From Akkermansia muciniphila (lineage in GTDB: Bacteria > Bacillota > Clostridia > Oscillospirales > CAG-272): DNA of 64,000 bases. Shown in pieces: positions 11,972 through 29,635 of this stretch. The position numbers and the translations under genes are program-made. The stretch spans positions 21,014-85,013 of the forward strand of contig CAVDSZ010000007.1 in the NCBI GenBank assembly GCA_963611795.1, given 5' to 3'. Each line of letters opens with the position of its first letter. Position 1 is the stretch's first letter. Below the pieces are notes generated by a model, which was given only the letters and a program-made list of their open reading frames with translations, had not been told where the DNA came from and ran no database searches.

Positions 11972-12889
11972 TTATCCGATACTGGAAATATCGTAGGGCG
12001 TCGATTGATACACGAAATAGTTCAGCCAGTTGGTGAAGAGCAGGTTTGCCGCCGAGCGCCAGCGCACGAGCGGCTCCCGTGTCGGGTCGTCGTCAGGGAA
12101 GTAATGTTCCGGCACAGGAGTTCCGGGGTCGAGATGCCGGTCGCGCAGATATTCCTTTTTCAGCGTGTCGGGGTCGTATTCCGCGTGCCCGGTGAAGAAG
12201 ATCTGCCTGCCGTGGTTGGCGGTGACGGCGAAGACACCCGCCTCGGGCGAGGAGGCGAGAATCCGCAGTTCGGGTATTGCTTCGATGGCGGCGCGGTCAA
12301 CGCCGGTGTGGCGGGAATGCGGCACGTAAAATACGTCGTCGAACCCGCGGAAGAGAATGGAGCGCTTGTATTCCACCGTGTGCGGGTAAACGCCGGAGAG
12401 CTTCCGCTCGAGCGGCACCTTCTCGATGCCGTAGTGGTAGTATAGACCCGCCTGCGCGCCCCAGCAGATGTGGAGTGTGCTGTAAACGTGCGTCTTCGAC
12501 CACTCCATGATGTCTTTCAGCTCATCCCAGTATTCCACCTCGGAAAAAGGGAGACGCTCGACGGGCGCGCCCGTGATGACAAGACCGTCATAGTTGTTCT
12601 CGCGGATTTCGTCGAACGTGCGGTAGAAGGAGAGCAGATGCTCCTCGGGGGTATTTTTCGAGACGTGCGAGCGGGTGTGGATAAGCTCTGGCTCGACTTG
12701 CAGAGGCGTGTTGCCGAGCAGGCGGCAGAGCTGCGTCTCGGTGTCCACCTTGGTGGGCATCAGATTCAGAATCAGGATTTTTAAGGGGCGGATGTCCTGC
12801 GTGACGGCGCGCGTTTCGGTCATGACGAAAATGTTCTCGTCCTCGAGTGTGCGTACCGCCGGCAGTTCGTTCGGGATTTTGATTGGCAT
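11972..12889 (-). CDS. metA: Homoserine O-acyltransferase (MetA family)
   Basis: [23 protein letters not shown]...[15 protein letters not shown]...[11 protein letters not shown] is the canonical MetA sequence. Confidence 0.9.
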
Positions 12890-12894
12890 GGCGC

Positions 12895-14184
12895 TTATGC
12901 CTCCACCGCGTCGAGCGCGGCGGCGAGGTCGGCGATGAGGTCGTCCGGGTCCTCAATCCCGCAGGAGTAGCGGACGAGGTCGGGGCTCACTCCAGCCGCG
13001 ACGAGTTGCTCATCGGTCAGTTGGCGGTGCGTAGCACTCGCCGGGTGCAGACAGCAGGTGCGCGCGTCCGCGACGTGCGTCTCGATGGCGGCGACTTTCA
13101 GTTGTTTCATGAAGGCTTCTGCCGCGCGGCGTCCGCCCCGCACGCCGAAGCTGACAACGCCGGAGGAACCGTTCGGCAGGTATTTCTGCTGGAGTGCATG
13201 GTAGGGGTCGCCCGGCAGATCGGAGTAGCGGACCCAGGTAACGTTCGGGTGGCTTTCCAGGAAAGTCGCGACCTTCAGGGCGTTTGCACAGTGCTGCTTC
13301 ATGCGCAGGTGCAGGCTCTCGAGCCCGAGGTTTAAGAGGAAGGCGCTCTGCGGCGATTGCGTACAGCCGAAGTCACGCATGAGTTGTGTCGTTGCCTTGG
13401 TGATATAGGCACCCGCCTGCCCGAACTCTTTCACATAGGTGATGCCGTGGTAACTTTCGTCTGGGATGCAGAGCCCGGGGAACTTCCCGGCGTTCGCCGC
13501 CCAGTCGAATTTGCCCGAGTCGACGACGGCGCCCCCGACGGCGGCACCGTGGCCGTCCATATACTTGGTGGTCGAGTGCGTGACGATGTCCGCGCCGAAC
13601 TCGAACGGGCGACAGTTCACCGGCGTCGCAAAGGTGTTGTCGACGATGAGCGGGACGCCGTGCGCGTGCGCCGCTTTCGCGAACCGCTCGATATCGAGGA
13701 CGGTCAGGGACGGGTTGGAGACGGTCTCGCCGAACACCGCCTTGGTGTTCGGGCGGAATGCGGCGTCCAGTTCCGCGTCGGTCGCGTCGGGGGAGACGAA
13801 CGTGAAGTCGATGCCCATACGTTTCATCGTGACGGCGAAGAGGTTGAACGTGCCGCCGTAAATGTGAGCGGAGGCGATGACGTGATCACCCGCCCCGGCT
13901 ATATTGAACACGGCGAAGAAGTTGGCGGCTTGCCCGGAGGAGGTCAGCATCGCGGCGGTACCGTCCTCGAGGGCGGCGATTTTCGCGGCGACCGCGTCGC
14001 AGGTCGGATTCTGCAGACGGGAATAGAAGTAGCCGCTTGCTTTGAGGTCGAAGAGGTCTCCCATGGCTTCGCTGGTCTCGTAGCGGAAGGTCGTGCTCTG
14101 CACAATGGGGATCTGTCTCGGCTCCCCGTTTTTCGGTGTGTAGCCCCCCTGTACGCAGGTGGTGGCGATGCCGGACTTTTTCAT
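12895..14184 (-). CDS. metY: O-acetylhomoserine sulfhydrylase / aminocarboxypropyltransferase (PLP, Cys/Met metabolism family)
   Basis: TTCVQGGY...[10 protein letters not shown]...YSRLQNPT...[11 protein letters not shown] (PLP-lysine motif). Confidence 0.9.
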
Positions 14185-14225: not shown

Positions 14226-14494
14226 GTAAAAAAACAAAAAACACCCGTCTCTTTTGAGACGGATGACTCCGCGGTACCACTCAAATTCACGGTCGGAACC
14301 GTGCCCTCACAGGCGCTGACACGCCCCGGCGGAACTCTCGCGCGCCACACGGGAGACCCTACACGCGTCTGACGCGCTCGAACCTCCGGCTCAGGAGCCA
14401 TAGGCACATTCTCTCTGGGCGACCGACTCGCACCACACGTCGGCTCTCTTGGCACCCTCGGGGAAGACCCTCTCCCTCATCGCCTTGCTGATTT
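14226..14494 (-). promoter_or_regulatory. T-box leader (apparent Met specifier AUG) controlling metY-metA
   Basis: Minus-strand RNA shows a K-turn GAUGA, AGAGAG and GGUGCGA stem-I motifs, and a specifier bulge CCU-AUG-G (AUG at 14399-14401). The T-box motif AAUUUGAGUGGUACCGCGG is at 14269-14287. Terminator hairpin ccgtctc-aaaa-gagacgg plus U-run is at 14226-14264. Confidence 0.85.
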
Positions 14495-14562: not shown

Positions 14563-14591
14563 TTTACAGAGATAAAGCATTGTGTTATACT
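14563..14591 (+). promoter_or_regulatory. Promoter of the yerC-like gene
   Basis: TTTACA (14563-14568), 17 nt spacer, TGtTATACT (-10 at 14586-14591). Confidence 0.6.
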
Positions 14592-14622
14592 GAAAGCGGA
14601 AAAACACATTTCGGAGGTGCCT

Positions 14623-14937
14623 ATGAACGGAGAGAACACGACGCTGTCTGAGCAACTGGAACTGCTTTTTGGCGTGATGGCGACGCTGGATACGCCCGAA
14701 AAGGTGAAGCGCTTTCTCACCGATGTCTGCACGGATACGGAGATCGAATACATGGCACAGCGGGTGGAATCCGCGCGCCTGCTCCTCTCTGGCGCGACGT
14801 ATCAGCAGGTGAGCGGGGCGGTGAAGATCTCGTCGGCGACGCTCAGCCGCGTCAACCGGTGTATCAAGCACGGCTCGGGTGGATATGCCGCCCTGCTCGC
14901 GGAATACCTCGCGGGGGAGAGCGAAAAAAACTCTTGA
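14623..14937 (+). CDS. YerC/YecD-family (TrpR-like) small DNA-binding protein
   Basis: LELLFGVMATLDTPEKVKRFLTDVCTDTEIEYMAQRVESARLLLSGATYQQVSGAVKISSATLSRVNRC matches the YerC/YecD pattern. ATG 14623 lies 5 nt after GGAGG. Confidence 0.75.
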   Translation: MNGENTTLSEQLELLFGVMATLDTPEKVKRFLTDVCTDTEIEYMAQRVESARLLLSGATYQQVSGAVKISSATLSRVNRCIKHGSGGYAALLAEYLAGESEKNS

Positions 14938-14962
14938 CACGCCGCACCCAGTTGTGTATAAT
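14934..14962 (+). promoter_or_regulatory. Consensus promoter of the Leu T-box operon
   Basis: TTGACA (14934-14939, containing the yerC-like stop TGA at 14935-14937), 17 nt spacer, TATAAT (14957-14962). Confidence 0.75.
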
Positions 14963-14969
14963 GCAGTCA

Positions 14970-15246
14970 ATAAATGCGTGGATGGTATTATGTCGCCATC
15001 GTATGACCTACACAGAGAGCCGCCGGTCGGTGCAAGGCGGTGGGGTCGGATGACGACAGTCTCGTACCGGAGCAGGCGCCCCGAACCGCTGTCGCAGTAA
15101 GGGCACCCGGACGGATCCCGTCACAGATCCTCGGCTTGTCAGAGCCGTCAGAGCGGTCGCCCCCGGGGCGGCAATGTCGGGTGGTACCGTGGTTGCATCG
15201 CAATCATCCCGCAGAAGTCTCAGGACTTCTGCGGTTTTTGTTTTTT
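14970..15246 (+). promoter_or_regulatory. T-box leader, apparent Leu specifier CUC
   Basis: K-turn UGC-GUGGAU-GGUA pairs with UACC-GGA-GCA. AGAGAG and GGUGCAA motifs are present. The specifier bulge is AGU-CUC-G (CUC at 15061-15063). T-box motif GGGUGGUACCGUGG is at 15179-15192. Terminator stem ccgcagaagtc/gacttctgcgg plus U-run is at 15209-15246. Confidence 0.85.
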
Positions 15247-15279: not shown

Positions 15280-16674
15280 ATGAAACAGCAAAATATAAGA
15301 GTGGTGACGGTTTCGGACAGGACGCTCGCGGTGTGTGTCGACGGGCGCGAGGCGCCGTTAACGTTCCGTGAGCGGACACGGATTGCCGAGATTCTTTCGG
15401 GCGCCGGGGTGGACGCGATTGAACTCCCCGCCATGACCCGCCCGCGCGAGGAGACGGTCGTGAACCGCACGATTGCGCTCGCTGCCGGGGAGGTTGCCGT
15501 TAAGATTCCCGTGGCGTGCGAGGAGGGTGTTGCCGCGGCGTATGAGAGTGTCCGCGACGCCATTCACCCGGTTCTGCAGGTCGTCATGCCGACTTCTACG
15601 CTCGGTATGGAATACCGCTTACATAAAAAGGCACCCGCCGCCCGCGACCATGCCGTTTCGCTCTGCCGTGCGGCGCGGGCGATTGCCCCCGCCGTCGAGT
15701 TCGTGGCGGAGGACGCATCCCGCGCGGAGCCCGCTTTCCTTGCAGAGCTCATGCAGGCGGTCATCGCCGTCGGGGTCACTTCGTTTGTCCTTTGCGATGA
15801 CGCCGGGAACTGGCTCCCCGAGGAGGCGGCGGCGACCGTCCGGGCGCTTGTGACGCCCGCATGCCCGCTCCTGATCCGCCCCGCGATGTCGCTCGGGCTC
15901 GCGTCTGCGGTCGCCGCCGCGGCGCTCACGGCGGGTGCCGCCGGGGTCGTCACCGGCTTGGGCGGTGGTTCTTACACTGCGGCGGCACTCTCCGACCTGT
16001 TGACCGCCCGCGGCGAGACGCTGGGGCTATCCTCCCGCCTCGTCGCCACCGCCATTCACCGGGAGACGGAGGAGATTCACCGCACCGCCGGCGGCATCGG
16101 CGGGAAGCGGCAGGATCCTATCGCCGCACGCATCGCGCTCGGCGCGGACGCTACGCTCGGCGAGGTCTCCGACGCTTGTAACGCCCTCGGCTATGAACTC
16201 TCCGATGAGGATATTACCCATGTCGTGCGTGAGGTACAGCGTGTCGCAGAGAAGAAGGAGTCGATTGGCGCCCGAGAGCTGGAAGCCATTGTTGCCACCG
16301 CCGCCATGCAGGTGCCCTCGACCTACCACCTCGTGAGTTATCTCGTCAGTACAGGGAATGTGATTTCTCCTATGGCGGAAGTCACACTGAAAACAGGGGA
16401 GCGCACGCAGTCGGGGGTCTCCATGGGTGACGGTCCGATTGACGCGGCGTTCCGCGCGCTCGAGCAAATCATCGGGCACCACTATGAGCTCGACGATTTC
16501 GAGATTCAATCGGTGACGGAGGGGCGCGGCGCCGTCGGCTCCGCCCTCGTCAAGTTGCGTCACGACGGCAGACTGTACGCGGGGCAGGGCATCTCGACCG
16601 ATATCATCGGCGCGAGCGTGCGTGCCTACCTCAACGCTTTGAACAAGATTATCTATGAGGATATACGGGAATGA
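15280..16674 (+). CDS. 2-isopropylmalate synthase-like protein lacking catalytic residues but retaining the LeuA C-terminal (allosteric/dimerisation) domain
   Basis: HMGL-like TIM-barrel similarity, but DRTLAVCVD replaces DTTLRDGEQ and IRPAMSLGLA replaces the HxHxDxG metal motif. The C-terminus GVSMGDGPIDAAFRALEQII...SVTEGRGAVGSALVKLRHDGRLYAGQGISTDIIGASVRAYLNALNKI is a clear LeuA_dimer domain. ATG 15280 follows GGGAGGAG. The track start at 15040 reads through the T-box leader. Confidence 0.7.
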   Translation: MKQQNIRVVTVSDRTLAVCVDGREAPLTFRERTRIAEILSGAGVDAIELPAMTRPREETVVNRTIALAAGEVAVKIPVACEEGVAAAYESVRDAIHPVLQVVMPTSTLGMEYRLHKKAPAARDHAVSLCRAARAIAPAVEFVAEDASRAEPAFLAELMQAVIAVGVTSFVLCDDAGNWLPEEAAATVRALVTPACPLLIRPAMSLGLASAVAAAALTAGAAGVVTGLGGGSYTAAALSDLLTARGETLGLSSRLVATAIHRETEEIHRTAGGIGGKRQDPIAARIALGADATLGEVSDACNALGYELSDEDITHVVREVQRVAEKKESIGARELEAIVATAAMQVPSTYHLVSYLVSTGNVISPMAEVTLKTGERTQSGVSMGDGPIDAAFRALEQIIGHHYELDDFEIQSVTEGRGAVGSALVKLRHDGRLYAGQGISTDIIGASVRAYLNALNKIIYEDIRE

Positions 16675-19121
16675 AACTGGCTTTTTCAACGGCACTCGTG
16701 CCGTCTCCGACGTTTTTCGCACTCTGTCATACCGCCGCCGAGTACGGCTATGAGGGCATAGAACTGCATAATCTCGATGCCGTCGCCGCCCTCCCGGACG
16801 GTCCCTTCGGCACGGACGCCGCGGGCGCGCGGCGCAAGTTGCGGAACAGGCGTCTTTCAGTCTCGGCGCTGACCTGCCCGACCCCGGCGGACGGGACGGA
16901 AGTCTCGCGGCGAGAGATTGAGCGCTACTCTCTCGCGGCGTCCGATGCGGGCATTCCCGCCGTCATCGTCACGGTGGCGGGAGGTGCCGATCCCGCCCGC
17001 ATCGCCGCCTCTCTGCGCCCGGTCGCGGAACAGGGAGATGCCCGGTGTGTAAGGCTCCTCTTTGAGACGACCGGCGACCTCGCAAACACCGAGCGCCTGC
17101 TCGCGATTCTGCACACCTTTCGCGCCGTCGGCGTCGGCGCCGCGTGGAATATCCGCGCGACGTACTTTGAGGGCGGAGAGAGTGCCGAGACAACAATCAC
17201 CACCCTCGGCGCCTATATCGCCTATGTCCGTATCGGTGACCGCCGCGCGGGCGGGGACGTGTTGCTCGGGGAGGGGGAACTCCCTACCAGGGACTTTCTC
17301 GACGCGCTCCGGTCGCTGAACTATGACGGCTATTGCGCCTTTGATACGGCGGATATCGCCGACCCCGACCTTCTGCTCACGCACAGTGCCGCTTTCCTGC
17401 GTGCCCGCCTCGGCGTGGAGAAAAAGCGCCGCCTGTTGTCGAACCGGGCGGGGACCGGCACGTTCCCGTGGAAGAAGTATGAGGTCATTGATAAGACCTT
17501 TTCGCAGGTGCTTGACGAGATGGCGGAGACCTACCCCGACCAGTACGCCTTCCGTTACCCGACTCTCGACTATACCCGCACTTACCGCGCGTTCCGCGAG
17601 GATGTTGACCGTATCGCCGCGTCGCTGATTGCCCTAGGGGTGAAGCCGGGGTACCACGTCGCCGTCTGGGCGACGAACGTCCCGCAGTGGTTCCTGACCT
17701 TCTGGGCGGCGGTCAAGATTGGCGCCGTCCTCGTCACCGTGAATACCGCGTATAAGATTCAGGAGGCGGAATATTTGCTCCGCCAGTCGGATACCCATAC
17801 GCTCGTGATGATTGAAAACTGTAAGGATTCCGATTACCGCGGCATTATGGCGGAGCTCTGCCCGGAGTTGAAAGACAAAGCGCCGGAGGCGCCGCTCTAC
17901 GCGGAGCGCCTGCCGTTTCTGCGCCACATCGTGACCGTCGGCTTTTCGATGCCCGGCGCGCTTCCCTGGGAGCGTTTCTCCGACCTTGGCGCGACCGTCC
18001 CGCCCGAAGAAGTGCGGCGCCTCGCCGCCGGGGTGCGCCCCGACGACGTCGCGAATATGCAATACACCTCCGGCACGACCGGTTTCCCGAAGGGCGTCAT
18101 GCTGACGCATCGGAATATTGTCAATAACGGGAAGATTATTGGCGATCGTATGGACCTCTCCACCGCCGACCGCATGATGGTGCAGGTGCCGATGTTCCAT
18201 TGCTTCGGCATGGTGCTGACGATGACGTCCGTGATGACCCACGGCGGCACGCTCTGCCCGCTCCCGTACTTCTCGCCGAAGTCGTCACTCGCCTGTATCA
18301 CCGCGGAGCGCATCACGTGCTTCAACGGCGTGCCCACCATGTTCATCGCCATGTTCGCGCATGAAGATTTCGCGGGGACGGACTTTTCTCATGTCCGCAC
18401 CGGCATCATGGCGGGGGCGAACTGCCCGGCAGAGCTTATGCGCCGCGCCGCCCGTGAGATGCACATGACGGAGATTGTCAGCGTGTTCGGGCAGACGGAG
18501 GCATCGCCCGGCTGCACCATGGGTGAGGTCGGGGAGGATCTCGACCACCGCGTCGAGACGGTGGGCACCGCTTTCCCCGGGGTGGAGTGCAAAATCATCG
18601 ACCCCGAGACGGGGGAGGATTTGCCCGACGGGGAGAACGGCGAGTTTGTCGCCCGTGGCTTCAATATGATGAAAGGCTACTACAAAATGCCCCGCGCGAC
18701 GGCGGCGACCATTGACCGCGAGGGCTGGCTCCATACGGGCGATATCTGCTGCCGCACGCCGGAGGGGTACTTCCGCGTGACGGGGCGACTCAAGGACATG
18801 ATTATCCGCGGCGGGGAGAACCTCTACCCGCGCGAGATTGAGGAATTCTACCTCACGCACCCCAAGGTCAAGGACGCGCAGGTCGTCGGCGTGCCGGATG
18901 CGCGCTACGGCGAGGAAGCCTGTGCGTGGATTGTCCTGCATGACGGTGAGAGCGCGACGGAGGAGGAGATGCGCGACTTCGGGCGCGCACATATCGCGAG
19001 CCATAAGGTGCCGCGCTATTTCGTGTTCGTTCGTGCTTTTCCCATGAACGCAGCAGGGAAGATTCTGAAATACAAAATGCGCGAGACTATGATTGAGCGC
19101 CTCGGGCTCGCCGATTGCTGA
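16671..19121 (+). CDS. Fusion protein: xylose-isomerase-like TIM barrel (sugar-phosphate isomerase/epimerase, AP_endonuc_2 fold) + AMP-forming acyl-CoA ligase (FadD/YngI-like)
   Basis: The first ~250 aa show the TIM-barrel pattern (YGYEGIELHN...). The remainder carries the AMP-binding motifs MQYTSGTTGFPKGVMLTHRNI, GWLHTGD and PMNAAGKILK. Its ATG overlaps the upstream stop (ATGA at 16671-16674). Confidence 0.75.
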   Translation: MKLAFSTALVPSPTFFALCHTAAEYGYEGIELHNLDAVAALPDGPFGTDAAGARRKLRNRRLSVSALTCPTPADGTEVSRREIERYSLAASDAGIPAVIVTVAGGADPARIAASLRPVAEQGDARCVRLLFETTGDLANTERLLAILHTFRAVGVGAAWNIRATYFEGGESAETTITTLGAYIAYVRIGDRRAGGDVLLGEGELPTRDFLDALRSLNYDGYCAFDTADIADPDLLLTHSAAFLRARLGVEKKRRLLSNRAGTGTFPWKKYEVIDKTFSQVLDEMAETYPDQYAFRYPTLDYTRTYRAFREDVDRIAASLIALGVKPGYHVAVWATNVPQWFLTFWAAVKIGAVLVTVNTAYKIQEAEYLLRQSDTHTLVMIENCKDSDYRGIMAELCPELKDKAPEAPLYAERLPFLRHIVTVGFSMPGALPWERFSDLGATVPPEEVRRLAAGVRPDDVANMQYTSGTTGFPKGVMLTHRNIVNNGKIIGDRMDLSTADRMMVQVPMFHCFGMVLTMTSVMTHGGTLCPLPYFSPKSSLACITAERITCFNGVPTMFIAMFAHEDFAGTDFSHVRTGIMAGANCPAELMRRAAREMHMTEIVSVFGQTEASPGCTMGEVGEDLDHRVETVGTAFPGVECKIIDPETGEDLPDGENGEFVARGFNMMKGYYKMPRATAATIDREGWLHTGDICCRTPEGYFRVTGRLKDMIIRGGENLYPREIEEFYLTHPKVKDAQVVGVPDARYGEEACAWIVLHDGESATEEEMRDFGRAHIASHKVPRYFVFVRAFPMNAAGKILKYKMRETMIERLGLADC

Positions 19122-19167: not shown

Positions 19168-19977
19168 GTGAGAGAGATTATTGACGCGCATTGTCATATC
19201 TACCCCGACAAGATTGCCGAAAAGGCGGCGAGGGCAATCGGGGCGTTCTACCGTATCCCGATGCGTTACGACGGACGTATGGAGACCATGCTCCGGGAGG
19301 GCTCGGCGGCAGGAATCGGTCGCTATCTTGTTTTTTCCGTCGCCACCAAGCCGACGCAGACCGTTTCAATCAACGACTATATCGTCGAGACCGTTGCCCG
19401 CCATGAGGGGCAGATGCTGGGGCTCGGCACCATTCACCCGGATAACACCGACCCGGGCGCCCACGTCGAGTATATGCTCGCACACGGGCTCCGCGGAGTG
19501 AAGCTCCACCCGGATATTCAGGAGGCCGCGCTCGACGATCCGCGCTGTATGCGTATTTTCGAGGCGTGTGAGGGCAGGCTCCCCGTGCTCCTCCACACGG
19601 GCGACCGCCGCTTCGACTATTCCAACCCGAACAGGCTCTGCCCGGTGTTGGAGCGTTTCCCGCGCCTGACGGTCATCGGGGCGCATTTCGGCGGTTATTC
19701 CGTCTGGCAGAGCGCGACCGAGATGCTCGCCGGGCATGAGAACCTCTATGTCGATTGCTCGTCCTCTCTCTTTGCCATGTCTCCCGAGGAGGGCAGACGC
19801 ATTGTGCGTGCCTGGGGGGCGGATCGCGTGCTGTTCGGCACCGATTATCCCATGTGGAACCCGACGGAGGAGGTCGCCCGCGTGGAAGCGCTCGGACTCA
19901 CAGAGGAGGAGAACGAACAGGTGTTCCACAAAAATGCCGAAAAACTTTTCGGTTTTGAGAGTCATCTTGGGGCTTGA
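19168..19977 (+). CDS. Amidohydrolase_2-type (ACMSD/LigI-like) metal-dependent TIM-barrel hydrolase/decarboxylase family protein
   Basis: IIDAHCHIYPD (HxH metal motif), ...GVKLHPD..., ...LLHTGD..., ...FGTDYPMW. GTG start follows AAGGAAG. Confidence 0.7.
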   Translation: MREIIDAHCHIYPDKIAEKAARAIGAFYRIPMRYDGRMETMLREGSAAGIGRYLVFSVATKPTQTVSINDYIVETVARHEGQMLGLGTIHPDNTDPGAHVEYMLAHGLRGVKLHPDIQEAALDDPRCMRIFEACEGRLPVLLHTGDRRFDYSNPNRLCPVLERFPRLTVIGAHFGGYSVWQSATEMLAGHENLYVDCSSSLFAMSPEEGRRIVRAWGADRVLFGTDYPMWNPTEEVARVEALGLTEEENEQVFHKNAEKLFGFESHLGA

Positions 19978-20003
19978 CAGCCCCCTGGGCGGTATGCTAT
20001 ACT
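19974..20003 (+). promoter_or_regulatory. Promoter of the Ile T-box unit
   Basis: TTGACA (19974-19979, containing the upstream stop TGA at 19975-19977), 18 nt spacer, TATACT (19998-20003). Confidence 0.65.
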
Positions 20004-20009
20004 CTTGTC

Positions 20010-20279
20010 ATCCGAAAAGACTGTGACGAAGACGGAAGTATCGTTTAATCCCAGAGAGCCGGCGGGCGGTGTGAGCCGGTGTGAGGACGGTACGTGTTCC
20101 TATCCCTTCCGAGTCGGAGTCCCCAAAGCGTGTTTTGCCGGTAGGGGTTCCCGTGACGCCGCGTGAGTGCAAAGGGCTTGTTTGAGCCTGAGGGCACGGC
20201 TTTTGCCGTGAATTTGAGTGGTACCGCGGGTCTATCAGACTCGTCTCAAAGCATTTTTGAGATGGGTCTTTTTGTTTTC
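20010..20279 (+). promoter_or_regulatory. T-box leader, apparent Ile specifier AUC
   Basis: AGAGAG and GGUGUGA stem-I motifs are present. The specifier bulge is CCU-AUC-C (AUC at 20102-20104), aligned with the CCU-AUG-G bulge of the Met leader. T-box motif AAUUUGAGUGGUACCGCGG is at 20211-20229. Terminator plus U-run is at 20237-20279. The C after the codon is atypical, since a purine is expected there. Confidence 0.8.
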
Positions 20280-20306: not shown

Positions 20307-22568
20307 ATGAACGAATCCACAATGCTCCGTATCGGGGAGATCGCGACGCGTATCCGCGGGATGCGGGAGATTCTCGGCTGGTCGGAGGCGGACATGGCGG
20401 AGAAGACGGGGCTCACCACGGAGGAATACGCCGCCTATGAGGGCGGCGGGGTCGATCTGCCGTTCACCTTCATTCATAACTGCGCGCTCGCGTTCGGAAT
20501 GGAACTCACGGAACTGCTGGAAGGGCGGGAGCCGAATTTGTCCTCCTATACCGTGACGCGCCGCGGAGAGGGAGAGGATACCGCCCGCGAGGCAGGAATC
20601 TTAATCCGCAATCTCGCGCCCCGCTTCCGCTCCAAGATTGCGGAGCCCTATTGGGTGCGGTATGAGTATGACGAGAAGCTCCAACATCAGCCGATCCACC
20701 TGACGCGCCACTCGGGGCAGGAGTTCGACCTGATTCTGCGCGGGCACCTGAAAGTGCAGGTCGGCGACCACATCGAGTTGCTCCGCGAGGGCGACAGCAT
20801 TTATTATGACAGCGCCACGCCCCACGGCATGATTGCCGTCGACGGGGAGGACTGCGTGTTCTGCGCCGTTGTCCTACCGGGGGCGGAGCATACCGCCGCG
20901 GCGGCACCCGCCGCGGTCGCCGTCCCCGATACGGGAGATCTTGTTGTCGATCGTTTTGTACAGACAGAGACGGACGGGAGCGGCGCGCTCACAGGCGTTT
21001 CTTTCAGAAATACGGAACACTTTAATTTTGGCTTTGACATCATCGACGCCATCGCCGCGAAATGCCCGGAGAAACTCGCGCTCCTGCACCTCGACGCGGA
21101 CAAAAACGAGCGTCGCTTCACCTATCGCGACCTGAAAACGGCGTCGAATCGGTGCGTCAACTACTTCCGTTCGCTCGGTATCGGGCGCGGGGATAAGGTC
21201 ATGCTGGTGCTGAAACGGCATTGCCAGTTCTGGTTCGCGATGATTGCGCTCCATAAGCTCGGCGCCGTCGCAATCCCCGCCACGTCGCAACTGAAAGAAC
21301 ATGATTTCACCTACCGCTTCGACGCCGCGGGTGTGGACGCCATTCTCGCGACGGCGGACGACGGCGTACCGGCTTGCGTGGACAGCGCCGCCGCGTCTTG
21401 CCCGACGCTGAGGACCAAGATTCTCGTCGGCGGCGCGCGCCCGGGCTGGCACGATTTCGACAGCGAATATACGCTCTATTCGGGGCACTACGACCGCCCC
21501 GAGGACGCCCCCGGCGGGGAGGAGACGGCACTCATGTTCTTCACCTCCGGCACGACGGGGAACTCCAAAATGGCGGCGCATAAACACACCTATGCTCTCG
21601 GGCACTTCGTGACGGCGAAATACTGGCATTGCTGCGAGCGCGACGGGCTCCATTTCACCATTTCCGACACCGGTTGGGGTAAGTCGCTCTGGGGGAAGTT
21701 CTACGGGCAGTTCATGTGCGAGGGCGCGGTCTTTGTCTACGATTTCCGCCGCTTCTCGGCGCCCGACCTCCTGCCGCTCTTTGCGAAGTACGGCATCACG
21801 ACCTTCTGCGCGCCGCCGACCATGCTGCGCCTGATGATTAAAGAGGATCTTTCCTCCTACGACCTCTCGTCCGTTCGACATATGACGACGGCGGGCGAGG
21901 CGCTTAACCCCGAGGTGCACAGACAGTTTTTCCTCTCGACGGGGCTCTCAATCATGGAGGGCTTCGGGCAGACCGAGACGACGCTCACGATTGCCAACCT
22001 TGCGGGGACGACTCCGAAGATTGGTTCCATGGGCAAGGCGTCTCCGCAGTATAAAATTGACCTCTTGGATGCGGACGGGAACCCCGTCGGCGTCGGTGAG
22101 GTCGGAGAGATTTGTATCGACGTTTCGGGGGGCGTCCCCGTCGGACTTTTCGAGGGCTACTACCGCGACCCCGAGCGCACACGTGAGGTATGGCATGACG
22201 GCTATTACCATACGGGCGACACCGCCTGGCGCGACGAGGACGGCTATTTCTTCTATGTCAGCCGCGTGGACGATGTAATCAAATCCTCCGGTTATCGAAT
22301 CGGACCGTTCGAGATTGAGAGTGTCATTATGGAACTGCCGTACGTCCTTGAGTGCGGCGTCTCTGCGGCGCCCGACGAGGTGCGCGGGCAGGTTGTGAAA
22401 GCCAGCATCGTGCTGACGCGCGGCACCGAGCCGACCGAGGCGTTGAAAAAAGAAATTCAGGACTATGTCAAGACGCATACCGCGCCGTATAAATACCCTC
22501 GTATTGTGGTTTTCCGAGAGGAGCTCCCCAAGACCGTGAGCGGTAAGATTCGACGCAATCTTTTGTGA
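20307..22568 (+). CDS. Fusion protein: XRE-family HTH + cupin domain + AMP-forming (medium-chain ACSM-like) acyl-CoA synthetase, paralogue 1
   Basis: HTH_3: IRGMREILGWSEADMAEKTGLTTEEYAAYEGG. Cupin: HSGQEFDLILRGHLKVQVGD...GDSIYYDSATPHGM. AMP-binding: MFFTSGTTGNSKMAAH, YHTGDTAWRDEDGYFFYVSRVDDVIKSSGYRIGPFEIE, PKTVSGKIRR. The ATG at 20307 is the first after the T-box terminator. Confidence 0.8.
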   Translation: MNESTMLRIGEIATRIRGMREILGWSEADMAEKTGLTTEEYAAYEGGGVDLPFTFIHNCALAFGMELTELLEGREPNLSSYTVTRRGEGEDTAREAGILIRNLAPRFRSKIAEPYWVRYEYDEKLQHQPIHLTRHSGQEFDLILRGHLKVQVGDHIELLREGDSIYYDSATPHGMIAVDGEDCVFCAVVLPGAEHTAAAAPAAVAVPDTGDLVVDRFVQTETDGSGALTGVSFRNTEHFNFGFDIIDAIAAKCPEKLALLHLDADKNERRFTYRDLKTASNRCVNYFRSLGIGRGDKVMLVLKRHCQFWFAMIALHKLGAVAIPATSQLKEHDFTYRFDAAGVDAILATADDGVPACVDSAAASCPTLRTKILVGGARPGWHDFDSEYTLYSGHYDRPEDAPGGEETALMFFTSGTTGNSKMAAHKHTYALGHFVTAKYWHCCERDGLHFTISDTGWGKSLWGKFYGQFMCEGAVFVYDFRRFSAPDLLPLFAKYGITTFCAPPTMLRLMIKEDLSSYDLSSVRHMTTAGEALNPEVHRQFFLSTGLSIMEGFGQTETTLTIANLAGTTPKIGSMGKASPQYKIDLLDADGNPVGVGEVGEICIDVSGGVPVGLFEGYYRDPERTREVWHDGYYHTGDTAWRDEDGYFFYVSRVDDVIKSSGYRIGPFEIESVIMELPYVLECGVSAAPDEVRGQVVKASIVLTRGTEPTEALKKEIQDYVKTHTAPYKYPRIVVFREELPKTVSGKIRRNLL

Positions 22569-22576
22569 AAAAACAG

Positions 22577-22605
22577 TTGACAGCAGATACAAAGTGTGAT
22601 ATAGT
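22577..22605 (+). promoter_or_regulatory. Promoter of the Val T-box operon
   Basis: TTGACA (22577-22582), 17 nt spacer, TATAGT (22600-22605). It begins 9 nt after the upstream stop. Confidence 0.7.
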
Positions 22606-22611: not shown

Positions 22612-22889
22612 AATCACCCAAAGGCGTTGAAGAAAAGGGCGCGTAGCAGGTTCCCTCTCAGAGACATGGCGGTTGGTGCGAGCCATGAGGGGCGGATACG
22701 TGTTTGTAGTTTCCGAGCCGGGAGGAAGAAAGGGATTTCCGAGTAGACCCTCCCCGTCATTGCCGCGTCAGAGCATAGAGTTTGCTAGAACTCGATAAGG
22801 GCACGACGGAACGTCGTGAATTTGAGTGGTACCGCGGGTCTTTTTCGGCTCGTCTCAAAGTCATACTTTGAGGCGGGCCTTTCTGTTTT
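22612..22889 (+). promoter_or_regulatory. T-box leader, apparent Val specifier GUA
   Basis: The lower helix pairs GGC...GAAA with UUUC-CGA-GCC. AGAGA and GGUGCGA motifs are present. The specifier bulge is UUU-GUA-G (GUA at 22706-22708). T-box motif AAUUUGAGUGGUACCGCGG is at 22819-22837. Terminator plus U-run is at 22847-22889. Confidence 0.85.
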
Positions 22890-22906: not shown

Positions 22907-25207
22907 ATGCAGACCAAAACCAAAACAGGACTGGAAGAGAAGATTCGCGAGATGGCGGGGCGTATCCGCGCCCTGCGGGAAATCGTCGGGTTTTCCACCG
23001 CCGAAATGGCGGAGAAGACGGACGTCGAGGAGGCGGAATACATCGCCTGCGAGGCGGGGCGGCAGGATTTGAACTTCGCGTTCCTTTATCGTTGTGCACA
23101 GGCGCTCGGCGTCGACGTCACGGATATTATCGAGGGGACGGGACCCCGCCTTTCCTCCTACACGGTCACGCGCCGCGGGGAGGGGCAGAAGATTGAACAG
23201 GCGCACGGCATGATTTATTACAATCTTGCCGCCGCTTTCAAGAACCGCATTGCCGAACCGCTGTTTGTCTGCTCGGTCTATTCCGAGGAGGCGCAGCACC
23301 GAGACATTGAACTCACGACACACATCGGGCAGGAGTGTGACATCATCGTCAGCGGCACGCTCAAAGTGCAGGTCGGTGAACACGTCGAGATTCTCCGCGC
23401 AGGCGACAGTATCTATTATGACAGCGCGACGCCCCACGGTATGATTGCGACCGAGGGGGCAGATTGTCTCTTCTATGCGATTGTCCTGAACCCGGCAGGA
23501 GAGCCGATTGCCAACCTGACGCACAGCGGTGTGCGCGAGTTTACCACCCTGCCGCCGAAGTTCCCCCCCAGCCGCAAGTGGGTGTGGGAGGACTATATCG
23601 ACGTCCGAGAGGGAGAGAACGGCGCGCTCGAGTCTCTCTCGTTTAAAAACACCGATACGTTCCATTTCGCCTTTGATATCGTGGACAGGATTGGACGGGA
23701 GCAGCCGGGGAAACTCGCGATGCTTCACCTCGACCGCGAGCACACGGAGCGCCGCTTCACGTTCGCCGACCTCTCCCGTGCTTCCAACCGCGCGGCGAAC
23801 TATTTCCGCTCTCTCGGCATCGGGCGCGGCGACCGCGTCCTGCTCCTGCTCAAGCGGCATTACCAGTTTTGGATTGCCCTGCTCGGGCTGATGAAGATCG
23901 GCGCCGTCTCCATTCCGGCGCCTTGCCAGCTCCGCGCGCATGATATCTCCTACCGCCTCGGCGCGGCGGGTATCTCCGCCGTCGTTGCTACGGCGGATGG
24001 CGATATTGCCACCGAGGTGGACGCCTCCACGGCGGAGGCGGGCGTGCCGCTGACCCGTATCCTCGTCGACGGCAAGCGCGAAGGCTGGCGCGACTTCGAC
24101 GGGGAGTACCCGCTCTTTACCGGGAAGTTCGAGCGCCCGGCGGACGCCCCGACGGGAGACAGTCTGATGCTCATGTATTTCACCTCCGGCACGTCGGGAA
24201 ACCCGAAGATTGCCGCGCATGATTACCGTTATCCCCTCGGGCATTTCCATACCGCGAAGTATTGGCACTGTGTGAACCCGGACGGTTTGCACCTCACCGT
24301 CGCCGACACCGGCTGGGCAAAAGCGGCGTGGGGGAAGATTTTCGGACAATGGCTATGTGAAGCACCCATTTTCGTCTATGATTTCGACAGATTCGACGCG
24401 GCGGATATCCTGCCGATGTTTGCCAAATATCATATCACCACCTTCTGTGCCCCGCCGACAATCCTCCGCATGATGGTCAAGGAGGATATCTCTCGCTACG
24501 ACCTTTCGTCCGTCGAGCATATGACGACGGCGGGTGAGGCACTCAATCCCGAGGTGTTTCGTCTCTTTGAGGCGGCGACCGGACTACAGATTATGGAGGG
24601 CTTCGGGCAGAGCGAGACGACCTGCGTGATTGCGAACCTCGTCGGCACCCGCGCCCGCCTCGGCTCGATGGGGAAGCCGGTACCGCTCTACCGCGTTGCA
24701 TTGCTCGACGGGGAGGGCAGACCCGTACCGGACGGCGAGGTCGGAGAAATCTGTATCGACGTCTCGGGGGGCGCGCCCTGCGGGCTGTTCCGCGGCTACT
24801 ACCGTGACGACGAAAAAACGGTGGAGTGCTGGCACGACGGTTACTACCATACGGGCGATACCGCATGGCGTGACGAGGACGGCTATTACTGGTATGTCGG
24901 GCGCACCGACGACCTCATCAAGTCCTCCGGCTACCGCATCGGACCCTTTGAGATCGAGAACGTCCTCATGGAACTGCCGTACATTCTCGAATGCGGCGTT
25001 TCCGCCGCGCCCGACCCGGTGCGCGGACAGGTGGTGAAAGCCAGCATCGTCCTCACCCGCGGCACCGCCCCGACGGAGGAACTCAAAAAAGAAATCCAGA
25101 ATTACGTCAAGGAACGTACCGCCCCCTATAAATACCCCCGTATCGTCGTGTTCCGGGAGGAACTCCCCAAGACGACGAGCGGTAAGATTCGGAGAAATCA
25201 ACTGTAA
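22907..25207 (+). CDS. Fusion protein: XRE-family HTH + cupin domain + AMP-forming acyl-CoA synthetase, paralogue 2
   Basis: Same three-module architecture as 20307-22568, and by eye roughly two-thirds identical to it. ATG 22907 follows GGGGAGGG. The track start at 22826 reads through the T-box terminator. Confidence 0.8.
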   Translation: MQTKTKTGLEEKIREMAGRIRALREIVGFSTAEMAEKTDVEEAEYIACEAGRQDLNFAFLYRCAQALGVDVTDIIEGTGPRLSSYTVTRRGEGQKIEQAHGMIYYNLAAAFKNRIAEPLFVCSVYSEEAQHRDIELTTHIGQECDIIVSGTLKVQVGEHVEILRAGDSIYYDSATPHGMIATEGADCLFYAIVLNPAGEPIANLTHSGVREFTTLPPKFPPSRKWVWEDYIDVREGENGALESLSFKNTDTFHFAFDIVDRIGREQPGKLAMLHLDREHTERRFTFADLSRASNRAANYFRSLGIGRGDRVLLLLKRHYQFWIALLGLMKIGAVSIPAPCQLRAHDISYRLGAAGISAVVATADGDIATEVDASTAEAGVPLTRILVDGKREGWRDFDGEYPLFTGKFERPADAPTGDSLMLMYFTSGTSGNPKIAAHDYRYPLGHFHTAKYWHCVNPDGLHLTVADTGWAKAAWGKIFGQWLCEAPIFVYDFDRFDAADILPMFAKYHITTFCAPPTILRMMVKEDISRYDLSSVEHMTTAGEALNPEVFRLFEAATGLQIMEGFGQSETTCVIANLVGTRARLGSMGKPVPLYRVALLDGEGRPVPDGEVGEICIDVSGGAPCGLFRGYYRDDEKTVECWHDGYYHTGDTAWRDEDGYYWYVGRTDDLIKSSGYRIGPFEIENVLMELPYILECGVSAAPDPVRGQVVKASIVLTRGTAPTEELKKEIQNYVKERTAPYKYPRIVVFREELPKTTSGKIRRNQL

Positions 25208-25218: not shown

Positions 25219-26301
25219 ATGTTAGAAATCCGTTTGACAAGAACCGCAACCCCGAAAGAAAAACCGCAGGACGAAAGCGCGCTCGGTTTCGGGAAGATTT
25301 TCACCGACCATATGTTTCTCGCCGATTATACGGAGGGGGAGGGGTGGCATGACGCCCGCATCGTCCCCTACGGTCCACTTTCGCTTTCTCCCGCCGCATC
25401 GGTGCTGCATTACGGCACCGAGATTTTCGAGGGCATGAAAGCGTATCGCACGGCATCGGGCGAAATCCGTCTGTTCCGCCCCATGGAGAATATCCGCCGC
25501 ATGAATCATAGTGCGGAGCGCTTGTGCCTGCCGGAGGTGGACGAGGCGTTCATGCTCCGCGCGCTGGATACGCTGGTGAATCTCGAACGCGACTGGGTGC
25601 CGAACAACGTTGGCACGTCTCTCTATATTCGCCCGTTCATGTTCGGCGCAGACCCTCACCTCGGCGTTCACGCCGTCCATGCGGCGACCCTCTGCATCAT
25701 CTGCTCGCCCGTCGGCGCCTATTACGCCGAGGGCATTAACCCGGTGAAGATTGCGATTGAGCACGAGGACGTCCGCGCCGTGCGCGGTGGTACGGGCTAT
25801 GCGAAGTGCGGCGGGAACTATGCCGCCAGCCTGCGTGCCGGTAAGCGTGCGGAGGAAAAGGGCTATACACAGGTGCTTTGGCTCGACGGCGTCGAGCGTA
25901 AGTACATCGAGGAAGTCGGCTCCATGAACGTCATGTTCAAGATTGCGGGGAAGATTGTCACCCCTGCGCTCACCGGCTCCGTCCTCCCCGGTATCACGCG
26001 CAAGTCCTGTATCGAATTGCTCCGTTCGTGGGGTTACGAGGTCGAAGAGCGTCTGCTCTCGGTCGGGGAACTGATTGGCGCCGCAGAGGACAGGACGCTC
26101 GAGGAGGCGTGGGGCACCGGCACGGCGGCGGTCGTCTCTCCGATCGGCACCCTTGCCTACGAGGGGAAGGAGCATATGGTCGGCGGCGGCGGCATCGGCG
26201 CCGTGACGCAGAAACTCTACGATACGCTGACGGGGATTCAGTGGGGTACGCTCCCGGACACCTTCGGCTGGTGCCACACGGTGGGGAAACCATGCGACTG
26301 A
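25219..26301 (+). CDS. ilvE: Branched-chain amino acid aminotransferase
   Basis: GFGKIFTDHMF...YGTEIFEGMKAYR...GGTGYAKCGGNYAAS... is the class-IV BCAT signature. AAGGAGAG lies before the ATG. Confidence 0.9.
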   Translation: MLEIRLTRTATPKEKPQDESALGFGKIFTDHMFLADYTEGEGWHDARIVPYGPLSLSPAASVLHYGTEIFEGMKAYRTASGEIRLFRPMENIRRMNHSAERLCLPEVDEAFMLRALDTLVNLERDWVPNNVGTSLYIRPFMFGADPHLGVHAVHAATLCIICSPVGAYYAEGINPVKIAIEHEDVRAVRGGTGYAKCGGNYAASLRAGKRAEEKGYTQVLWLDGVERKYIEEVGSMNVMFKIAGKIVTPALTGSVLPGITRKSCIELLRSWGYEVEERLLSVGELIGAAEDRTLEEAWGTGTAAVVSPIGTLAYEGKEHMVGGGGIGAVTQKLYDTLTGIQWGTLPDTFGWCHTVGKPCD

Positions 26302-26960
26302 CCGAGTTTCCGCACCGGCGGGTCACACTCTTCGCCGGGCATTACGGGAGCGGGAAGACTAATCTCGCCGTCAACTATGCGCTCGCCCTCCGCGAGAGGG
26401 GGGAAAGCGTGACGGTCGCCGATATGGATATTGTCAACCCGTATTTCCGTACCAAGGACAGCGCCGAGGTGCTCAGTGCGGCGGGGATACGCCTGATTTC
26501 CCCTGCGTTTGCGAACAGTAACGTCGATTTGCCGGCGCTCCCGGCGGCGCTCTATCTGCCAATCGTCGCCCGCGATACGCTCGCGATTCTGGACATCGGC
26601 GGTGATGACCGCGGGGCGTATGCCCTCGGGCGGTATGCACCGGATATTCTCACAGAGGGCAATTTTGAAATGATTTTCGTCGTGAACTTTTGCCGCCCGC
26701 TGACAGAGACGACGGAGGACGCGCTCGGGGTCATGCGGGAAATTGAGACGGCGGGCGGGATTCCGTTTACCGCGATTGTCAACAATTCCAACCTCGGCAC
26801 CGAGACGACCCCTGAAACGGTGCGTGCGACGCAAGCGCGCGCCGGAGAACTCTCGCGCCTCTCGGGGCTCCCGCTCCTGTTTACCTCCGCCGAGGCGCGC
26901 ATTGCCGACGCGGTACCTGAACCGCTCTTCGCGCTCAATCTGCAAAAGAAGTATATTTGA
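26292..26960 (+). CDS. Small SIMIBI-class (MinD/ParA/CooC-like) P-loop NTPase of unknown role
   Basis: Walker A: FAGHYGSGKTNLAVN. Walker B-like: LAILDIGGDD. 222 aa counted from ATG 26292, which overlaps the ilvE 3' end by 10 nt. The track start at 26028 lies inside ilvE in another frame. Confidence 0.6.
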   Translation: MRLTEFPHRRVTLFAGHYGSGKTNLAVNYALALRERGESVTVADMDIVNPYFRTKDSAEVLSAAGIRLISPAFANSNVDLPALPAALYLPIVARDTLAILDIGGDDRGAYALGRYAPDILTEGNFEMIFVVNFCRPLTETTEDALGVMREIETAGGIPFTAIVNNSNLGTETTPETVRATQARAGELSRLSGLPLLFTSAEARIADAVPEPLFALNLQKKYI

Positions 26961-26974
26961 TAAAGGAGACTGCC

Positions 26975-27181
26975 ATGGCGAAAGTGACTTTTGCGACGGA
27001 CCTTTGTAAAGGCTGTGGACTGTGTGTCGCCGCCTGCCCGCGGGGCATCATCGCGCTCTCGCGTGAAAAAATCAATCAGAAAGGACATTCTCCCGCCGAG
27101 GTGACGGACGGGTCGAAGTGCATCGGTTGTGCTTTCTGCGCGACGATGTGCCCCGACTGCGTAATCACGGTGGAGAAGTGA
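26975..27181 (+). CDS. 2-oxoacid:ferredoxin oxidoreductase delta subunit (2x[4Fe-4S] ferredoxin-type)
   Basis: Two CxxCxxCxxxCP clusters (CKGCGLCVAACP and CIGCAFCATMCP). ATG 26975 follows AAGGAG. Confidence 0.85.
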   Translation: MAKVTFATDLCKGCGLCVAACPRGIIALSREKINQKGHSPAEVTDGSKCIGCAFCATMCPDCVITVEK

Positions 27182-27190
27182 GGTGATACA

Positions 27191-28258: not shown

Positions 28259-29004
28259 CTGTATTTGAAAAACCGAAATCCCTGACGGACGCGCCGCTGC
28301 ATTATTGCCCCGGCTGTACGCACGGGATTATACACCGCCTTGTCGCACAGGCGATTGACACGCTCGGGATTGAGGGGAAGACGATTGGCGTCGCCCCCGT
28401 CGGCTGCGCCGTCATGGCGTACGACTATTTTGCCTGTGACATGGTGGAGGCGGCGCACGGCAGAGCCCCTGCGGTCGCGACCGGCATTAAGCGCGCACTT
28501 CCCGAAAATATCGTATTTACTTATCAGGGAGACGGCGACCTTGCCTCCATCGGCATGGCGGAGACGGTACACGCCGCAACTCGGAACGAGAATATCACCG
28601 TGATCTTTGTCAATAACGCGATTTACGGCATGACGGGCGGGCAAATGGCGCCGACGTCGCTCCCCGGACAGGTCACGCAGACCTCCCCCTATGGTCGTGA
28701 CGTCGCGACGGTCGGCTATCCGATCCGTGTTTCGGAGATGCTCGCCGCCCTCGACGGACCTGCCTATATTCGGCGCGTCGCCGTCAACAACGTGAAGCAC
28801 GTGAAAGAGGCGGAGAAAGCGATTTTGAAAGCCTTCCGAAACCAGGTGGAGGGGCGCGGATTTTCGCTTATTGAAGTGATTTCTTCCTGCCCGACCAACT
28901 GGGGCATGACCCCCGAGGCGGCGCTTCAGTGGGTAGAGGATAAAATGATTCCGTATTATCCGCTCGGCGTGTATAAGGACAAGACAGAGGAGGGTACACG
29001 ATGA
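28255..29004 (+). CDS. 2-oxoacid:ferredoxin oxidoreductase beta subunit (TPP-binding)
   Basis: YCPGCTHGI...GDGDLASIGMAE...NNAIYGMTGGQ TPP motif. Start overlaps the alpha-subunit stop. Confidence 0.85.
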   Translation: MTVFEKPKSLTDAPLHYCPGCTHGIIHRLVAQAIDTLGIEGKTIGVAPVGCAVMAYDYFACDMVEAAHGRAPAVATGIKRALPENIVFTYQGDGDLASIGMAETVHAATRNENITVIFVNNAIYGMTGGQMAPTSLPGQVTQTSPYGRDVATVGYPIRVSEMLAALDGPAYIRRVAVNNVKHVKEAEKAILKAFRNQVEGRGFSLIEVISSCPTNWGMTPEAALQWVEDKMIPYYPLGVYKDKTEEGTR

Positions 29005-29528: not shown

Positions 29529-29593
29529 AATCTCCTCATAGAGCGCCCTGTTAACAAAACCGATTTCTATCGTATCAAAACCGATTCCACAAT

Positions 29594-29635
29594 ACAAAGA
29601 GGAGCCGTTAACACGGCTCCTCTTTGTGCTTTTTA
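29594..29635 (+). terminator. Terminator ending the Val T-box operon
   Basis: 14-bp perfect stem acaaagaggagccg / cggctcctctttgt (29594-29627), followed by gcTTTTT. Confidence 0.8.

Follow-up and report, generated by a model that had tools for sequence, protein, structure and literature searches.

The window analysed here is a 64,000-nucleotide stretch of contig CAVDSZ010000007.1 (assembly GCA_963611795.1, forward strand, positions 21,014 to 85,013), deposited as Akkermansia muciniphila and placed by GTDB in the Clostridia (Oscillospirales, CAG-272); coordinates below count from its first nucleotide. The gene at 15280-16674 encodes a 464-residue protein resembling isopropylmalate synthase, LeuA, which we call pLeuA for LeuA-derived pseudoenzyme. 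The protein lacks the metal ligands and the general-base segment of the synthase and keeps its allosteric domain, its gene is the first of an operon under a leucine T-box, and the next gene encodes a TIM barrel fused to an acyl-CoA ligase, here the TIM-ligase. We conclude that pLeuA is almost certainly not a synthase and is likely a functional partner of the ligase, for which it may act as a leucine sensor. The features on which this argument depends are the following.

14934-14962, + strand: sigma-70-type promoter of the Leu operon (TTGACA, 17-nt spacer, TATAAT; 12 of 12 consensus matches)
14970-15214, + strand: T-box leader with Leu specifier CUC at 15061-15063 (RF00230, 84.8 bits, E 1e-18, gathering score 93)
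15209-15244, + strand: intrinsic T-box terminator of the Leu operon (11-bp stem, then a T run; also placed at 15209-15234)
15280-16674, + strand: pLeuA, 464 aa (ATG at 15280, TGA at 16672-16674)
15280-16044, + strand: degenerate HMGL-like / DRE-TIM barrel of pLeuA (residues 1-255), with V18, R200 and A202 replacing the metal ligands and A17 replacing the Arg
16270-16650, + strand: LeuA_dimer allosteric domain of pLeuA (residues 331-457), with GDGPI (383-387), G420 and STDI (439-442) invariant
16671-19121, + strand: partner gene, a xylose-isomerase-like TIM domain (residues 1-250, 16671-17420) fused to an AMP-forming acyl-CoA ligase (residues ~273-812)

Two Pfam domains were recognized in the window pLeuA. 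PF00682 (HMGL-like) matches residues 24-232 with 82 bits (E 6e-23, cut-off 29), and PF08502 (LeuA_dimer) matches with 108 bits (E 4e-31) over profile positions 4-130 of 131. From 71 homologues, AlphaFold2 gave a model with a mean predicted local distance difference test score (pLDDT) of 89.7 and values of ~95-98 in the barrel. The top structural matches of this model are the methylthioalkylmalate (MAM) synthase 6E1J and Mycobacterium tuberculosis LeuA (E ~1e-21), and in Foldseek the barrel superposes on the LeuA barrels 3EEG, 3RMJ and 3EWB with a root-mean-square deviation of ~2 Å (E 1e-18). The Pfam and structure matches therefore identify pLeuA as a LeuA homologue well beyond chance. An earlier, sequence-only reading of this DNA had quoted four motifs from the protein, and all were found: SDRTLAVCVD (residues 12-21), IRPAMSLGLA (199-208), TGLGGGSYT and the C-terminal GDGPIDAAF...STDIIGASVRAYLNALNKI. 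The overlap it described between the pLeuA stop codon and the start of the next gene (ATGA, 16671-16674) is also present. Its alignment with LeuA along the full length did not hold up, as subdomain I is absent from pLeuA. NCBI annotates family members as ‘alpha-isopropylmalate synthase regulatory domain-containing protein’ or ‘hypothetical protein’ and nothing more, and no description of the pLeuA family was found in the literature on the LeuA regulatory domain and pseudoenzymes, isovalerate reductive carboxylation, or T-boxes with ferredoxin oxidoreductases.

The residues needed for synthase activity are defined by the LeuA/MAM-synthase active site in 6E1J, in which Asp90, His288 and His290 are the metal ligands, Gln93 and Thr257 contact the substrate, and Glu227, His388 (the general base) and Tyr399 are other key residues (PMC11532901). 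Arg89 is essential and invariant across all DRE-TIM metallolyases; R89A, R89K and R89Q mutants of the MAM synthase are inactive, and changes of Arg to Ala or Lys and of His to Ala kill activity in relatives (PMC11532901). We mapped these residues onto pLeuA with phmmer against 6E1J and 3RMJ and with MAFFT alongside Escherichia coli LeuA, and the mappings agree. Using 6E1J numbering, Arg89 corresponds to A17 in the window protein, Asp90 to V18, Gln93 to D21, Thr257 to D174, His288 to R200, and His290 to A202. The GERAGN loop is shortened with deletion of its Glu, and the subdomain-I segment of ~35-40 residues that carries His388 and the stacking Tyr399 (HxSGIHQDG in E. coli) is deleted.

The same positions were counted across 203 distinct pLeuA homologues. 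Only three retain the metal Asp, and neither histidine of His-x-His survives in any member (0/203 and 0/203). The GERAGN Glu is deleted in 203/203 and the subdomain-I His segment in 202/203, an equivalent of Glu227 is present in 12/203, and Thr is replaced by Asp at the PDTVG position in 189/203. No conserved His was found near strand 7 in the family. As many as 17 kinds of residue occupy the Asp position and 15 the E(ED) position, and this high variability implies relaxed constraint at the metal site rather than a new active site. The claim from the sequence that catalytic residues are lost thus stands for the metal Asp, His-x-His, the GERAGN Glu and the general-base His segment. For the Arg it stands in the window protein, which has A17, and fails as a family trait, since this position holds Arg in 85 members, Lys in 76 and other residues in 42.

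If pLeuA were a true synthase of isopropylmalate, citramalate or homocitrate with its active-site residues merely displaced, the LeuA fold and domain order that it preserves would be expected, and the Arg retained by 85 of the 203 members could be read in the same way. The residue mapping found no such shifted residues. The phmmer and MAFFT pairings are concordant, the strands of the AlphaFold2 model are placed as in LeuA, strand 7 offers no conserved His nearby, the general-base His segment is physically missing, and equivalent mutations abolish activity in relatives (PMC11532901). The equivalog models of NCBIfam are no kinder to this explanation. The best score of the window pLeuA is 221.8 bits for NF002086 (cut-off 532), TIGR00973 gives 192 bits (cut-off 598.7), and none of the LeuA, CimA and NifV models was reached, with cut-offs of 517-748 and scores 2.4-5 times below them. 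No leuBCD neighbours were found at the window locus or at the related loci. We rejected a true synthase with shifted residues on the concordant mapping, the absent His segment and the low equivalog scores, and consider it very improbable. The statement that pLeuA is ‘not a synthase’ is strongly supported, as the metal ligands and the general-base His are missing in the window protein and in essentially all 203 homologues. Without the catalytic features that define LeuA, pLeuA should not be classed as an isopropylmalate synthase; what it has in common with the enzyme is the fold and the regulatory domain only.

The family is widespread, with carriers in at least 526 species-level genomes. At E ≤ 1e-30 we obtained 212 representatives, ~130 of which are full-length clusters (50% identity) of 453-497 aa. 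The 80 genome-collection loci that were kept all come from uncultured (metagenome-assembled) genomes, nearly all of gut Clostridia (Christensenellaceae, Acutalibacteraceae, Oscillospiraceae, Eubacteriales), while two carry the label Spirochaetales. Within the family, pairwise identity averages 73% in the regulatory domain, 49% in the barrel and 46% in the linker, a gradient inverse to that expected of a synthase. The well-conserved C-terminal domain noted from the sequence is borne out by this 73% identity and by the 108-bit match to PF08502. The invariant residues of the barrel include D13, E140, D145, R148 and D173, and beyond the positions common with LeuA the regulatory domain has family-specific invariant surface residues in MQVPSTYH, HYELDDF and NALNKI. 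We considered a relic pseudogene and rejected it on this family-wide conservation. Since the barrel is itself well conserved, it is no decaying relic. pLeuA is under strong selection, which is concentrated in the allosteric domain.

Some of the invariant positions in this domain can be compared with the leucine site of LeuA. In M. tuberculosis LeuA, leucine lies in a hydrophobic pocket where two regulatory domains meet, and a helix N-terminus stands on either side of its carboxylate (PMC11057210). The helix N-terminal motifs of pLeuA, GDGPI and STDI, are invariant in the family, and their counterparts in E. coli LeuA are GNGPV and ATDI. G420 of pLeuA aligns with G462 of E. coli LeuA and is Gly in 203/203 members; the E. 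coli leuA allele G462D is feedback-dysregulated and is used for removing leucine feedback (PMC6345581). The C-terminal half of pLeuA scores up to 222 bits with LeuA models, compared with 21-28 bits for citramalate synthase models. These features would fit an amino-acid site retained in pLeuA, probably one for leucine.

Two sets of related sequences were noted alongside the family. A metagenome contig of 10.6 kb (L088, ERZ1034755) carries a near-identical module, with amino-acid identities of 95% for pLeuA, 93% for the TIM domain and 99% for the ligase, implying that the window organism or a close relative was sampled elsewhere. Three weakly related, full-length LeuA homologues of 503-516 aa, P0375 (locus L168:6001-7536), P0379 and P0382, have partly degenerate motifs (for example DTTLCDGEQ, IRAYNDLG and a scrambled HxSGIHQDG). 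They may be further variants of LeuA on the way to inactivity, or active enzymes of an unusual kind. P0375 was rejected as a member of the pLeuA family because it lies in a different context, directly upstream of an aconitase/LeuC-family gene.

The association of pLeuA with the TIM-ligase was evaluated in both directions. In a survey of 86 loci from genomes and metagenome assemblies, 85 had sequence downstream of pLeuA, and the TIM-ligase fusion lies directly 3' of it in all 85, typically within ~10 nt or overlapping. In the other direction, the TIM domain alone served to collect 80 metagenome loci, which were counted where there was enough flanking sequence. pLeuA is immediately upstream in 69/70, typically 8-10 nt from the last aligned residue, and the ligase is fused downstream of the TIM domain in 71/73. 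The proposal that pLeuA is attached to the downstream ligase is strongly supported by this reciprocal, near-obligate adjacency, and a functional partnership between the two is likely. Across loci the ligase core is the part most similar to the window proteins (74-84% identity in most, 64-71% in a few divergent loci, 64-68% in the most divergent), followed by pLeuA at 40-53% and the TIM domain at 30-53%.

The ligase half of the partner is PRK12583-like (660 bits), and its core has intact adenylation motifs, namely YTSGTTGFPKG, the GRLKDMIIRGGEN hinge and the C-terminal GKILK lysine. The TIM domain matches AP_endonuc_2 with 57 bits (Pfam cut-off 31.1). It was compared by profile search, as a single-sequence PDB search was too weak, and the profile aligns with MJ1311 (3WQO) and D-tagatose 3-epimerase (8XIX). 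The canonical Glu/Asp/His/Glu metal ligands correspond to E132/N160/R187/D225 of the window protein. In most members the last three of these positions hold Asn, Arg and a residue other than Glu, a loss of three of the four ligands; only the two most divergent members, L082 (L082:8406-9197) and L085 (L085:5153-5995), retain Asp, His and Glu. The pattern suggests that the domain was once an active enzyme and later degenerated. The ligase is therefore attached to a second, probably non-catalytic TIM barrel. The loss of ligands points to a docking or regulatory role for this domain rather than catalysis. The model of the full-length fusion is good for the TIM domain only, and a fold search with it returned only ligases.

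That pLeuA is the first gene of a Leu T-box operon, as the sequence-only reading had it, is confirmed by the order upstream of it: promoter, T-box leader with a CUC specifier, terminator and ribosome-binding site. The specifier is closed by a GGUA/UACC helix, and the T-box sequence is GGGTGGTACCG at ~15179-15190 (GGGUGGUACCG at ~15179). The window leader, at 84.8 bits, is slightly under the RF00230 gathering score of 93. With the Rfam model, a T-box was found ahead of pLeuA in 12/13 loci at 84-137 bits (10/12 above 93), carrying CUC. A motif search found a T-box with CUC at the specifier position in 67/80 pLeuA loci. Two tandem T-box motifs precede pLeuA in L012:3163-3608 and L045:2042-2473, and also in L024, L065 and L074, with the second scoring lower with the Rfam model.

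Downstream of the TIM-ligase, the operon continues with a third gene and is followed by two more T-box units.

19168-19977, + strand: Amidohydro_2 protein, third gene of the Leu operon (PF04909, 133 bits; intact N-terminal HxH motif)
20014-20251, + strand: T-box with Ile (AUC) specifier and its own promoter at 19974-20003
20307-22568, + strand: fusion of helix-turn-helix (HTH), cupin and MbcS-like acyl-CoA synthetase, Ile unit
22618-22860, + strand: T-box with Val (GUA) specifier and its own promoter at 22577-22605
22907-25207, + strand: second HTH-cupin-MbcS-like acyl-CoA synthetase, Val unit
25219-26301, + strand: branched-chain amino acid aminotransferase IlvE (NF009897, 477 bits, cut-off 307)
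26957-29528, + strand: four-subunit 2-oxoacid:ferredoxin oxidoreductase (delta 26957-27181, alpha or VorB 27191-28258, beta 28255-29004, gamma 29001-29528)

The three branched-chain T-box units of the window, Leu (CUC), Ile (AUC) and Val (GUA), each contain one acyl-CoA ligase, and the assignment of codon to ligase recurs in dozens of related loci, where MbcS1-like proteins go with ATC and MbcS2-like proteins with GTA. The order in the Val unit is MbcS-like synthetase, IlvE, a P-loop protein and the four-subunit oxidoreductase. The alpha subunit of the latter passes the VorB model NF005507 (560 bits, cut-off 399), and a terminator lies at 29593-29628. IlvE and Vor genes directly follow the pLeuA/TIM-ligase pair in ~10 other loci. 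Rumen anaerobes have been known since the 1960s, from their physiology, to convert branched short-chain acids to Leu, Ile and Val. The simplest reading of the locus is that it makes Ile, Val and Leu from such acids by CoA activation, reductive carboxylation and transamination. The characterized MbcS activates 2-methylbutyrate and isobutyrate and accepts isovalerate only poorly (PMC10026030), so that isovalerate remains for the ligase of the Leu unit. By exclusion and context, isovalerate is most likely the substrate of the TIM-ligase.

Several further observations concern these units. In the Ile and Val ligases, the N-terminal HTH_XRE and cupin module could be a comparable sensor built into the protein. 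The P-loop protein between IlvE and the ferredoxin-type delta subunit (26292-26960) is CbiA/ParA-like with weak Pfam matches and might assist maturation or have an accessory role; other loci show a comparable spacing of ~900 nt from IlvE to Vor alpha. An Amidohydro_2 homologue occurs within 7 kb, upstream or downstream, in 34/86 related loci.

We propose that in pLeuA the retained LeuA barrel is a scaffold, while the retained allosteric domain does the work. In the pathway that it would control, the TIM-ligase would activate isovalerate to isovaleryl-CoA, the Vor-type oxidoreductase would reductively carboxylate this to 2-oxoisocaproate, and IlvE would transaminate 2-oxoisocaproate to leucine. 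Control would operate at two levels. Uncharged tRNA-Leu would turn on transcription of the operon through the Leu T-box. At the protein level, pLeuA would dimerize by its LeuA-like domains and bind leucine at the interface of the regulatory domains, as in LeuA. The effect of leucine in LeuA is to make the accessory and regulatory domains rigid relative to the partner barrel (PMC9860122). An equivalent rigidifying change in pLeuA could be passed to the TIM-ligase, so that less isovalerate is activated when leucine is abundant. The catalytic cycle of such a ligase relies on large domain motions. By this mechanism, end-product control of the LeuA type would have moved to the first committed step of an alternative route to leucine.

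The sequence-only reading had proposed a pseudoenzyme serving as a leucine sensor for the ligase. The proposal is supported in part, strongly so for the absence of synthase function and the pairing with the ligase. The features examined here also fit a leucine sensor: the regulatory domain is the best-conserved part, GDGPI and STDI are kept, the equivalent of G462 is invariant, and CUC is found in 67/80 loci. We give an even chance to the reading that pLeuA is a non-catalytic, leucine-sensing partner of an isovalerate-CoA ligase, in which we infer the complex, the ligand, the sign of the effect and the substrate. Leucine-dependent regulation by pLeuA, judged separately, likewise has about an even chance. 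The full proposal is that the LeuA allosteric module was exapted as a trans-acting leucine sensor and, with the dead TIM barrel fused to the ligase, exerts feedback on an isovalerate-CoA ligase at the committed step of a reductive-carboxylation route in uncultured gut Clostridia. This is put forward tentatively, as a possibility that falls somewhat short of even.

A number of observations weigh against a leucine-sensing partner of an isovalerate-CoA ligase. With 49% identity and many invariant residues, the well-conserved barrel may have a function of its own. The case for leucine binding is drawn from motif conservation and that for a pLeuA-ligase complex has gene adjacency as its basis, and no fusion of pLeuA to the ligase was found among the best 120 ligase homologues (all 814-824 aa) or the best 150 pLeuA representatives. 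Isovalerate was assigned by exclusion and context and not from specificity-determining residues. The Amidohydro_2 gene has no place in the proposed pathway from isovalerate to leucine, and 11/80 pLeuA loci have no recognizable T-box within 700 nt upstream.

Three other roles for pLeuA can be set against these points. It could be a structural or activating subunit that senses no end product, serving as a scaffold or chaperone-like factor for assembly or activation of the TIM-ligase or as a tether to Vor for acyl-CoA channelling, with LeuA_dimer used only for dimerization and contacts. The obligate pairing with the ligase fits such a subunit, as do the Vor genes directly after the pair in ~10 loci; two degenerate TIM barrels would suit protein-protein contacts, and the family-specific invariant surface residues (MQVPSTYH, HYELDDF, NALNKI) could form the interface. 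Pure dimerization would not, however, need invariant GDGPI and STDI helix N-termini or the Gly equivalent to G462, and the combination of a leucine T-box with a leucine-binding ancestor would have to be coincidence. We consider this role unlikely. The conserved barrel invites a further idea, that it gained a new, DRE-TIM-independent catalysis in the pathway, acting with the amidohydrolase and/or the ligase TIM domain, which would make pLeuA an enzyme rather than a pseudoenzyme. The fold of the barrel is predicted with confidence (pLDDT 95-98), conserved residues sit at strand ends (D13, E48, S106/T107, E140, D145, R148 and C172-D173-D174), the Thr to Asp change is found in 189/203 members, and an apparently active amidohydrolase with its HxH motif is in the same operon. 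Most of the conserved barrel residues are nevertheless common to true LeuA and plausibly structural, the metal- and substrate-site positions are variable (17 and 15 residue kinds) as under relaxed constraint, and the capping subdomain I is deleted. A new activity in the barrel is therefore improbable.

The sensor could also respond to a different ligand or act in the opposite direction, for instance by binding isoleucine, valine, 2-oxoisocaproate or an acyl-CoA and activating the ligase or another pathway enzyme. Homologous domains do differ in ligand, as the regulatory domain of citramalate synthase binds isoleucine (PMC9860122), and the barrel of pLeuA retains several residues that line the LeuA pocket (E140, D145, R148, D173). 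Yet the C-terminal half of pLeuA is much nearer to LeuA than to CimA models, operon control is specific to tRNA-Leu, and isoleucine and valine are served by separate units, whose ligases carry another kind of N-terminal module. We regard another ligand or direction as distinctly unlikely.

Comparison with known systems helps to place pLeuA as a candidate leucine sensor. Like the bacterial short form of LeuA (TIGR00973 / PRK00915), a DRE-TIM metallolyase of the Claisen-condensation subgroup, it has an HMGL-like TIM barrel, helical subdomain II and LeuA_dimer in this order, and the two share closely superposing barrels, the regulatory motifs and the Gly equivalent to G462. Unlike LeuA, it is without the metal Asp, His-x-His, the GERAGN Glu and subdomain I, with the Arg lost in the window protein, and it occurs outside the leuABCD context, always beside an acyl-CoA ligase and with an inverted conservation gradient. 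HisZ is a catalytically dead paralogue of HisRS that serves as the histidine-sensing regulatory subunit of the short-form ATP phosphoribosyltransferase HisG. The proposed role of pLeuA is similar in that a pseudoenzyme from an amino-acid-recognizing ancestor would be a trans-acting allosteric subunit on the first biosynthetic enzyme; the ancestor, fold and partner differ, and for pLeuA the complex and the feedback are predictions. MAM synthases and other LeuA derivatives without the regulatory domain (6E1J; PMC11532901) are, like pLeuA, LeuA paralogues that entered a new role through losing one module. MAM synthases are the mirror image of pLeuA, as catalysis was kept and the sensor lost in the former and the sensor kept and catalysis lost in the latter. 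CimA has a homologous allosteric domain, which binds a branched-chain amino acid (isoleucine) at the dimer interface. Unlike pLeuA it is catalytically active, and pLeuA matches CimA models weakly (21-28 bits, compared with up to 222 for LeuA). The partner ligase can be compared with MbcS of Staphylococcus aureus (PMC10026030), which converts an exogenous branched short-chain acid to its CoA ester and which two window ligases resemble. The partner ligase differs in belonging to a PRK12583-like clade and in carrying an N-terminal degenerate TIM domain, whereas MbcS feeds fatty-acid synthesis and has no sensor partner.

A large family in at least 526 species-level genomes of animal-gut Clostridia, annotated by domain name only, thus appears to be a LeuA-derived pseudoenzyme. 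pLeuA would be a clear case in which the sensor domain of an enzyme outlives the catalytic domain and is reused on a different enzyme. The locus links the formation of leucine, isoleucine and valine from isovalerate, 2-methylbutyrate and isobutyrate with particular genes and regulators. The candidates are three ligases under separate T-boxes, IlvE and a Vor-type oxidoreductase, and with them the route and its feedback can be tested directly in vitro. Should the proposal prove true, the locus would be a complete genetic definition of the route, with three tRNA-specific T-box units each having a dedicated, sensor-equipped ligase, and the leucine-binding protein, taken by itself, would serve directly as a sensor module for leucine.

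Other features of the window were recorded on both sides of the locus. A Met T-box on the - strand (14252-14489, 72.6 bits, AUG specifier) has a perfect promoter at 14529-14501 and precedes genes for O-acetylhomoserine sulfhydrylase (12895-14184) and MetA (11972-12889); locus L006 likewise has the metY-metA pair upstream of its pLeuA. The space between the diverging promoters of the Met and Leu T-boxes holds a gene for a small TrpR/YerC-family protein (14617-14937; PF01371, 70 bits), with a promoter-like site at 14563-14591. Further downstream, 35368-44928 is a single + strand open reading frame of 3186 aa, followed by a VWA-domain protein at 48271-50295 and further long open reading frames at 50308-53190, 53121-55958 and 56028-61094.

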